A stretch of DNA of 64,000 nucleotides from the NCBI RefSeq assembly GCF_003334765.1, contig NZ_QOWT01000018.1, one strand, 5' to 3'. Positions 17,801-20,800 of this stretch are shown one piece after another (positions within the stretch are counted from its first letter, which is position 1; every line of letters starts with the position of its first letter). The position numbers were made by a program. The DNA is from Escherichia coli. GTDB lineage: Bacteria > Pseudomonadota > Gammaproteobacteria > Enterobacterales > Enterobacteriaceae.

Positions 17801-20800
17801 AATGAATCAGGAATATCGGCAGCATATGGCACAACGAAGATCTATACTACAGATACTAGAGCAAGATGGCTACATGGTGGGGGATCATCGTTGCGCGATC
17901 CTTATGCTCCTCGACAAGGCTGGAAACCAACTATGGGATGTACCCGTGCACAGAATGAAGATGTAGATGAGTTGTGTAAGAAAGTGACAAGTTGGATGTA
18001 TTCGCATCCTGGAGAGAGAATTAGATATGAACGTTTTAAGACACGTTAATGCGATTAACATGGGAGTGTGCATTCTAATTTGGGTTATTGGATGTGCAAA
18101 TGCTAAAGTTCTTAAACGATGTATATTACCCGCTCCTGATGGTGGCGTAGAAAAACTATCAAAACCCAACTTACATGGAGTAATTAAAAAAGTTGATTTG
18201 AACACAAATGAAGCGGAAATTAAAATAAAAGAGGGGGGGGCAGTGAGTTTTATTTTTAATGAGGAAACATTGTATTTTACTGTTTTTGGTGGGGATTTTA
18301 TTATGGATGATTTAAAAAAAGTAAAAAATACGGAAGCATGGGTATGGTATAAAAATTGCGATAGTAAAAATAAAAATGTGGCAGTTGAACTTCTTCAAAT
18401 CTACGAATTGCATCAATGAAAAATATAGTTAAATAGAGGAGGTTATTAATAGCAGGAAAAGCATCACGTGATGCTGATTTTTTGCACTAAATAATTCGCG
18501 CTAATGTTCAATAGTTAATATATCCCTCATCAGGGAAAGATCACCGGTGTGCCGTAGGCACAAAGATGCAAAACGGGACGTTTTGCATGTAATAAGCATA
18601 AGCTTGTGAAGAGATGGTGGCAGGCCCACCGGGATCTGCTGTCGGAAGTCGGTCCCAAACAACCCCGGCTGCTGTGGTAAAGAGCCATGGTAGTGAGCGC
18701 AGGGGCAGGGAAAGATCACGTAACGCTGATTTTTTGTACTAAATAATTCGCATTTTATGTTTAAAAATTGAGATATTCCTCATTACCTGAAGCTGTTTTT
18801 TATTGCTTATACATGATCAAATACTCCTTACATAATTAAGGAGAACAAAATGGAACTTAAAAAATTGATGGAACATATTTCTATTATCCCCGATTACAGA
18901 CAAGCCTGGAAAGTGGAACATAAATTGTCAGATATTCTACTGTTGACTATTTGTGCCGTTATTTCTGGTGCAGAAGGCTGGGAAGATATAGAGGATTTTG
19001 GGGAAACACATCTCGATTTTTTAAAACAATATGGTGATTTTGAAAATGGTATTCCTGTTCACGATACCATCGCCAGAGTTGTATCCTGTATCAGTCCTTC
19101 AAAATTTCACGAGTGCTTTATTAACTGGATGCGAGATTGCCATACTTCAGATGATAAAGACGTCATCGCAATTGATGGAAAAACACTCCGGCATTCTTAT
19201 GACAAGAGTCGCCGCAAGGGAGCGATTCATGTCATTAGTGCGTTCTCTACAATGCACAGTCTGGTCATCGGACAGATCAGGACGGATGAGAAATCCAATG
19301 AGATTACAGCTATCCCTGAACTTCTTAACATGCTGGATATTAAAGGAAAAATCATCACAACTGATGCGATGGGTTGCCAGAAAGATATTGCAGAGAAGAT
19401 ACAAAAACAGGGAGGTGATTATTTATTCGCGGTAAAAGGAAACCAGGGGCGGCTAAATAAAGCCTTTGAGGAAAAATTTCCGCTGAAAGAATTAAATAAT
19501 CCAGCGCATGACAGTTACGCAATGAGTGAAAAGAGTCACGGCAGAGAAGAAATCCGTCTTCATATTGTTTGCGATGTCCCTGATGAACTTATTGATTTCA
19601 CGTTTGAATGGAAAGGACTGAAGAAATTATGCGTGGCAGTCTCCTTTCGGTCAATAATAGCAGAACAAAAGAAAGAGCCAGAAATGACGGTCAGATATTA
19701 TATCAGTTCTGCTGATTTAACCGCAGAGAAGTTCGCCACAGCAATCCGAAACCACTGGCACGTGGAGAATAAGCTGCACAGGCGTCTGGACGTGGTAATG
19801 AATGAAGACGACTACAAAATAAGAAGAGGAAACGCAGCAGAATTATTTTCAGGGATACGGCACATTGCTATTAATATTTTGACGAATGAGAAGGTATTCA
19901 AGGCAGGGTTAAGACGTAAGATGCGAAAAGCAGCCATGGACAGAAACTACCTGGCGTCAGTCCTTGCGGGGAGCGGGCTTTCGTAGTAATACCCCGACTC
20001 TCCCCGTCCTTAAACACAACCCCCACTCACCACAACCTAAACTCATCCGCATCCTGCCATGCCGGAAACTTTTCTCTATATTCCCGCAATGCTGCCATCG
20101 ACAGCTCCGCATCAATGCGCGTTGCCTGATGCGCGTCGGCAGTAGCGATAATCTCTCCTTGCGGATTAATCACCCGGCTGTCACCGCGATAATGGCAGCC
20201 GTTGCCATCGCTGCCGACGCGATTGCATCCCGCCACATACGCCTGATTCTCAATCGCGCGGGCCGTCAGCAATGCCTGCCAGTGCAGAGAGCGCGGAGCA
20301 GGCCAGTTGGCGACGTACAGGGCGAGGTCATAATCGTTGAGATTGCGCGACCACACAGGAAAACGTAAGTCGTAGCACACCAGCGGCAAAATACGCCAGC
20401 CGCGCCATTCCACAATCACTCGCGCATTGCCCGCTTTATAATGTAGATGCTCATCTGCCATGCGGAACAGATGACGCTTATCATAAAAATGTACCGTGCC
20501 GCCCGGCTCAACCAGCAAAAAGCGGTTAACCGAACCAGACTCCGTTTGTAATGCAACACTGCCTGCAATCAGCGCATTGCACTGCTGCGCCTTAGCTGTC
20601 ATCCAGTTCACTACGTCATCTTGTGCTAGCGACGAAGCTGCCGCTTCCATGGCAAAGCCGCTGGTAAACATCTCCGGTAGAACGATCACATCGCGCCCGG
20701 TAATACCTTCCAGTTGACGATCAAAATGACGCAGGTTGGCAGGACCATCCATCCACACCAGTGGTTGCTGCAAAAGCGTAATCTTCAAACCAGGCACGGT

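Follow-up and report, generated by a model that had tools for sequence, protein, structure and literature searches.

An old, probably immobile H-repeat (ISEc1) copy beside yafV at the edge of an Escherichia coli T6SS/Rhs island

The H-repeats (H-rpt, or ISEc1) of Escherichia coli are elements of about 1.29 kb that carry a single DDE transposase gene and belong to the ISAs1 family. In K-12 they are represented by yhhI at RhsB, ydcC at RhsE and ybfL and ybfD at RhsC, downstream of the rhs toxin/immunity module. At RhsC (comparison locus L005, 8302–10915) three H-repeat copies abut without any spacer, in the order nt 1–381, a full copy and then a copy that begins from about nt 25 right after the preceding right end, an arrangement that is explained by no single simple insertion. 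ISAs1 of Aeromonas salmonicida and its relatives share with the H-repeats a two-domain DDE transposase of ~375 amino acids. It is also known that H-rpt transposition has never been observed, as stated in the paper describing the E. coli W genome, which in addition lists an rhs region at b0215–b0221 (PMC3032704). That region is the site considered here.

We analysed a 64,000-nucleotide stretch of E. coli contig NZ_QOWT01000018.1 (hereafter, the window). A preliminary description of this DNA had drawn attention to an apparently intact ISAs1-family H-repeat transposase lying between an Rhs toxin/immunity module and yafV. Compared with the ISEc1 copies of K-12, the window copy has the same 378-amino acid ORF, the same left end and the same position downstream of an rhs toxin/immunity module, but it lacks the canonical 11-bp right terminus, encodes four distinguishing residues (W311R, A84S, C322Y and D347E) and ends its ORF with TAG rather than TAA. 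The K-12 pseudogene yafF (b4503) represents the same insertion, with an identical yafV junction and the same arginine codon at position 311, but comprises only its last 280 bp.

The ORF begins with ATG and runs from 18850 to 19986 on the plus strand, as established by ORF calling and direct reading of the DNA. Its product matches the NCBIfam profile NF033564 ('ISAs1 family transposase') over the whole of its length (profile positions 1–314 of 314) with a score of 407.1 bits (curated cutoff, 70; E = 4.7e-122). In Pfam, residues 8–94 correspond to the DDE_Tnp_1_assoc domain (PF13808, E = 1.6e-33) and residues 102–343, C-terminal to this, to the DDE_Tnp_1 catalytic domain (PF01609, E = 3.9e-28). 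At the amino-acid level it is 97% identical to the H-repeat proteins encoded in K-12 at RhsB (YhhI) and RhsE (YdcC). An identical protein is already present in NCBI under the name 'ISAs1 family transposase' on 108 contigs, and the corresponding 90%-identity cluster has 38,559 members. The ORF is a genuine ISAs1-family (H-repeat/ISEc1) transposase gene of E. coli. In this respect the preliminary description was correct, both in reporting an uninterrupted 378-amino acid frame between the Rhs module and yafV (there is no internal stop codon) and in its choice of family, which stands after a profile search that could have placed the protein outside the ISAs1/DDE group and matched the full NF033564 profile. 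Upstream of the ORF, in the interval 18808–18843 on the plus strand, are two predicted expression signals: a weak promoter-like site found by consensus scanning (TATACA-17-CATAAT, 18808–18836) and a ribosome-binding site seen by direct reading (AAGGAG, 18838–18843, 6 nt before the ATG), each being a consensus match only.

The ends of the element were set by comparison with the K-12 copies yhhI, ydcC and ybfL, to which the window is 96.6%, 96.6% and 95.9% identical at the nucleotide level over 18703/18706–19985. Homology to the K-12 copies extends from 18706 to 19985 (plus strand), so that 1280 bp of the window can be aligned to elements that measure 1291 bp in their canonical form. At the left end lies an 11-bp terminal inverted repeat, CAGGGAAAGAT (18706–18716, plus strand), that is identical in the K-12 copies and, when reverse-complemented, gives the canonical right end, ATCTTTCCCTG; the yhhI, ydcC, ybfL, 19KM1776 and EC1 copies all start at this same point. 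In the preliminary description no clear inverted repeats could be seen within ~100 bp of the ORF on either side. This is accounted for on the left by the position of the repeat, which was overlooked because it lies 144 bp upstream of the transposase ATG, and on the right by a repeat that is degenerate or lost.

The canonical right terminus, ATCTT(G/T)CCCTG, would occupy the 11 bp immediately past the homology but is absent from the window copy. Positions 19986–19996 (plus strand) instead read GTAATACCCCG, a degenerate or replaced terminus that matches the canonical sequence at 6 of 11 positions and whose terminal bases are CCCCG rather than CCCTG; restored to canonical form, the right end would read ATCTTGCCCTG. 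It is the first of these non-canonical bases, at 19986, that completes the TAG stop codon of the transposase gene. Direct reading and gene order define the remainder of the interval, 19997–20026, as a spacer that separates the element from the stop codon of yafV. The canonical right end is retained at the same yafV site in strains 19KM1776 and VCSW5, where it is followed by ACCCGTA and then by GTCTTACCCCG. From this comparison the right junction in the window may have arisen through the loss of 18 bp between CGTA repeats, or it may be an older right end that has mutated. A clean 11-bp truncation of the right end was also considered and was dropped after alignment with other lineages at the yafV site. 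Repeat finding inside the window gave only chance-level inverted-repeat pairs and did not resolve the ends. Nor was a target-site duplication found around the window copy, a result that is non-discriminating as none was found around five complete copies either. Going by what is generally known of DDE transposases, the altered right terminus is likely to disable this end of the element, with the residual 6/11 match leaving open that the end is weak rather than absent.

The state of the enzyme was assessed by aligning the protein with 125 diverse full-length family representatives (36–54% identical) that were retrieved by searching 1.84 billion cluster representatives. Three acidic residues, D109, D172 and E306, are present in the window protein and are likely to constitute the catalytic triad; conservation of the corresponding alignment columns is 99%, 99% and 98%, respectively. 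Across the ISAs1 family the block R300-x-H-W-x2-E306-N-x-L-H-W-x-L-D314 is readily recognisable. Within it (H-W-x-V-E306-N-x-L-H-W311-x-L-D-V), the residue at position 311, five residues after the presumed catalytic glutamate, is tryptophan in 118 of the 125 representatives, tyrosine in six and cysteine in one; none has arginine, the residue found in the window as the result of a single base change from TGG to AGG. Arginine at 311 is peculiar to the yafV-locus lineage, being found in the window, in M15, SHP24, BL21(DE3), GF4 and CFSAN061761 and in the K-12 yafF remnant. Eight other E. coli copies, among them those that more distant lineages carry at the yafV site, have tryptophan. A separate feature, common to the whole H-repeat clade, is leucine at position 332 in place of the asparagine found in 94% of the family. 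The conservation of position 311 suggests that W311R is a damaging substitution. Since the protein family, the domains, the acidic residues, the left repeat and the overall identity are those of an H-repeat while the right repeat and the tryptophan are not, the window copy is a member of the family by descent, albeit a defective one.

How long has the element been at this site? A 120-nt probe spanning the H-repeat/yafV junction, required to match over at least 80% of its length, identified the junction in 1,470 of 5,426 complete E. coli genomes. A larger figure of 3,142 genomes, obtained with at least 80% of a 1641-nt query, was rejected as a count of the locus because units made up of the intron stub described below and an H-repeat are also found elsewhere, for example at ydcC in O55:H7. 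Strains carrying the copy at the yafV site include BL21(DE3), M15, SHP24, GF4 and CFSAN061761. In more distant lineages an H-repeat or a right-end remnant is found directly before yafV, with other toxin/immunity cassettes upstream and extra copies nested in. K-12 too retains a trace: yafF, long annotated as a pseudogene at this site and described as an H-repeat remnant, corresponds to window 19706–19985, with 100% identity through yafV. The presence of the same junction in 1,470 genomes, together with the K-12 remnant, indicates that the insertion is old, fixed and vertically inherited.

These observations bear on whether the element might be an active, autonomous insertion sequence, recently arrived at the island edge, still mobile and still promoting rearrangements. 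The uninterrupted ORF with its DDE residues, the intact left inverted repeat, the ribosome-binding and promoter-like sites and the abundance of the family (some H-repeat sequence in 5,354 genomes, with a median of five places per genome) would all fit such a view. Set against it, however, are the age and vertical inheritance implied by the widely shared junction and the K-12 remnant, the degenerate right terminus, the W311R change and the lack of a target-site duplication (a non-discriminating feature, as noted above), as well as the fact that transposition of H-rpt has never been reported (PMC3032704). We regard an active element as very unlikely and the idea as largely refuted, and the earlier characterisation of the element as apparently intact was not upheld, given its 6/11 right terminus and its substituted tryptophan, and with no target-site duplication seen around it.

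Our preferred reading, to which we assign a probability of roughly 85%, is that this is a fixed, old and probably immobile ISEc1 copy with a spoiled right end and the W311R substitution, an ordinary stranded relic and not an active element. On this reading, an H-repeat would have entered the site beside yafV, on the right-hand border of the aspV T6SS/Rhs island, long ago and been inherited vertically from then on. Mobility would have been lost because the right terminus has diverged from the inverted repeat that the transposase needs to recognise and cut, and the enzyme would have been impaired by the replacement of a near-invariant tryptophan with arginine. Both losses, of mobility and of enzyme activity, are deduced here from sequence comparison.

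In the wider locus, the nearest complete E. coli genomes are 99.9% identical to the window over 8000–20100. Their gene order is aspV–yafT–ykfM–yafU-like–hcp–vasL–tssM–rhs–small ORF–ISAs1 transposase–yafV–ivy–fadE, which bears out the placement of the element in the preliminary description at an island boundary directly before yafV, this being the right edge of the aspV T6SS/Rhs island. The immediate upstream neighbour of the transposase gene is a 130-amino acid ORF (18027–18419) that follows the rhs C-terminus; downstream, yafV is convergent, on the minus strand, with its stop at 20027. The aspV gene itself, encoding tRNA-Asp, lies at 8003–8077. The first 78 nt of the window (1–78) are identical to aspV and represent a second tRNA-Asp gene, truncated where the window begins, which from K-12 gene order we take to be probably aspU at the end of rrnH. 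The module upstream of the H-repeat had been presented as an Rhs toxin/immunity module. A small ORF does indeed follow the rhs C-terminus, but the rhs gene is a 5′-truncated pseudogene lacking the sequence for its N-terminus, fused to a remnant of tssM that retains only a C-terminal fragment; both are annotated as pseudogenes by RefSeq in the nearest genome. In the window the tssM remnant (12645–13949, minus strand) adjoins the truncated rhs (13961–18049, plus strand). As tssM and rhs are both truncated pseudogenes, this locus is probably unable to deliver the Rhs toxin encoded upstream of the H-repeat. In strain M15 a fuller cluster, tssB–hcp–vgrG–rhs, is found upstream of the same H-repeat.

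Most of this region has been lost from K-12. Alignment of K-12 MG1655 with the window shows 99.96–100% identity on both sides of a gap in which window 10175–19705 is missing, so that the deletion removed part of yafU, all of hcp and vasL, the tssM and rhs remnants and the immunity gene and reached 1000 bp into the H-repeat, leaving the pseudogenes yafU and yafF. The deletion endpoints, 10170–10174 and 19706–19710, share a 5-bp microhomology, TTCTG. It had been suggested that the H-repeat may have mediated rearrangements at this locus, and the K-12 deletion was considered as a candidate for such an event. It was rejected as such: the junction lies at the TTCTG inside the ORF, which is neither an element end nor a second copy, and the suggestion is left with no direct support. 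The structure of the junction identifies the deletion as the product of illegitimate recombination, and not of a transposase event or of recombination between two H-repeat copies.

The preliminary description had called H-repeats classic companions of rhs loci, and this is supported: at each of the rhs loci that we examined (RhsB, RhsC, RhsE, the window, O55:H7, EC1 and MRSN346647) the toxin/immunity module is followed by an H-repeat. Pairwise dN/dS values among five intact H-repeat copies range from 0.07 to 0.19. Values as low as these indicate that purifying selection has acted on the family overall, and suggest that some copies are, or recently were, functionally constrained. The window transposase might still act in trans.

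Could the transposase have been domesticated by the host, with the exchange of Rhs C-terminal toxin/immunity cassettes as a candidate use? The low dN/dS values, the constant association of H-repeats with toxin/immunity modules, the variation between lineages in the cassette that precedes the yafV-site H-repeat and the fact that transposition has not been observed (PMC3032704) are all in keeping with this idea. Low dN/dS among paralogues is, however, also expected of an insertion sequence family that is only occasionally active. Moreover, H-repeat genes are frequently pseudogenes (O55:H7 ydcC, EC-129, VCSW5, MS8320 and K-12 ybfL, yncI and yafF), K-12 has dispensed with nearly all of the yafV-site copy, and the private changes of the yafV lineage comprise four that are non-synonymous (A84S, W311R, C322Y and D347E) against five that are synonymous, the former including a radical change at a near-invariant residue. 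We consider domestication quite unlikely.

Why, then, does the frame of a stranded copy remain open? Six differences separate the window copy from its orthologue in SHP24, all of them in nt 618–768 of the ORF (window 19467–19617), and at five of the six the window shares the state of K-12 ydcC. A table of variable sites across H-repeat copies is mosaic overall. This pattern suggests that a short gene-conversion tract has passed from another H-repeat copy into the window copy. The ORF is intact in five of the six orthologues sampled, a point that tells against the reading as a relic. Decayed copies are found as well, with a 1-nt deletion causing a frameshift in EC-129, a frameshifted ORF in VCSW5 and a fragmented one in MS8320. 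If the window copy is indeed a stranded relic, repair of the ORF through gene conversion by other H-repeat copies may be part of the reason that its frame stays open; our reading, from what are thin data, is that recency and conversion from paralogues, not selection on this particular copy, have kept it so.

A further explanation would have the ORF open by chance in a dead element that makes no protein, its DNA serving as portable homology for recombination between rhs loci. The degenerate ends and W311R accord with this, and the mosaic, conversion-like pattern shows that the DNA does recombine. Against this, a ribosome-binding site that is good as judged by sequence match has been retained, and a frame of 1137 nt is open in five of six orthologues. 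We find this the least credible of the explanations considered.

Just upstream of the element lie three pieces of debris. A diverged H-repeat left-end stub at 18453–18530 (plus strand), 81% identical to 18705–18783, comes directly after the rhs-linked small ORF and contains a terminator-like hairpin with a T-run (18460–18475). Next to it, repeat finding revealed a 14-nt exact copy of the H-repeat left end, CAGGGAAAGATCAC (18531–18544, plus strand), which forms the 5′ flank of a fragment of a group II intron. This fragment, of ~160 nt (18547–18705, plus strand), starts with GTGTG and comprises domain I only. It scores 81.8 bits against Rfam RF01999 (group II intron D1-D4-2; gathering score 36, E = 4e-16), though the last ~26 positions of the model are filled spuriously in the window by H-repeat sequence; the corresponding stub in O55:H7 retains the genuine hairpin and scores 93.1 bits. 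The closest described relative is the RmInt1-type intron of Sinorhizobium meliloti, which matches the same Rfam model and to whose domain I the fragment is ~77% identical. The S. meliloti intron has a reverse transcriptase ORF and domains V and VI, whereas the window fragment has neither: a search of 17500–21500 returned no match to RF00029 and no reverse transcriptase ORF, and domains V and VI are absent. What remains at 18547–18705 is a dead 5′ remnant and not an intron.

Such stubs are widespread. They are found, unannotated, in ~2,560 complete E. coli genomes, mostly once per genome, and they recur ahead of H-repeats at other rhs loci, each time preceded by the same 14–16 nt of H-repeat left end. 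At comparison loci L007, L008 and L010 the stub lies at 4016–4213, 4015–4112 and about 3490–3800, respectively. At four rhs loci (the window, O55:H7, EC1 and MRSN346647) the stub adjoins a precise H-repeat left end at four different 3′ breakpoints. The simplest story would be that a homing intron once invaded an H-repeat at its left end, and that differing lengths of it were lost later in events for which an H-repeat left end served as the anchor. Ferat, Le Gouar and Michel reportedly described a group II intron within an H-repeat of E. coli in 1994; our own search of the available literature for a link between H-rpt and an intron found none. Attempts to locate a full-length source were negative. 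Plasmid CP044307.1 was examined as a candidate and rejected, having no ORFs of at least 120 amino acids and no Rfam match; a distant search of E. coli genomes for a full-length relative yielded only stubs and no annotated reverse transcriptase; and when species-representative genomes were scanned for an exact 17-mer, the 70 matches looked like chance, as no group II intron match was obtained at the 17 of them, all proteobacterial, that were tested.

As the element itself is already known as ISEc1/H-rpt, the present copy has little importance beyond annotation, where it should be treated as a stranded, probably immobile copy and not as an intact insertion sequence. The analysis does, however, identify the right boundary of the island as an ancient H-repeat right end common to several lineages, attribute the loss of the T6SS/Rhs remnant from K-12 to a microhomology deletion and not a transposase event, and bring to light an unannotated group II intron stub that adjoins the H-repeat at several rhs loci. 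It is conceivable, though in our view unlikely, that the differing breakpoints of these stubs are footprints of H-repeat transposase activity, in the form of end-anchored adjacent deletions or repeated insertions into the intron. Were this so, they would be the first sequence evidence of activity in E. coli for an H-repeat that has never been seen to move and, taken with the purifying selection to which the ORF has been subject, might reflect a role retained by the host in the reshuffling of Rhs toxin cassettes.
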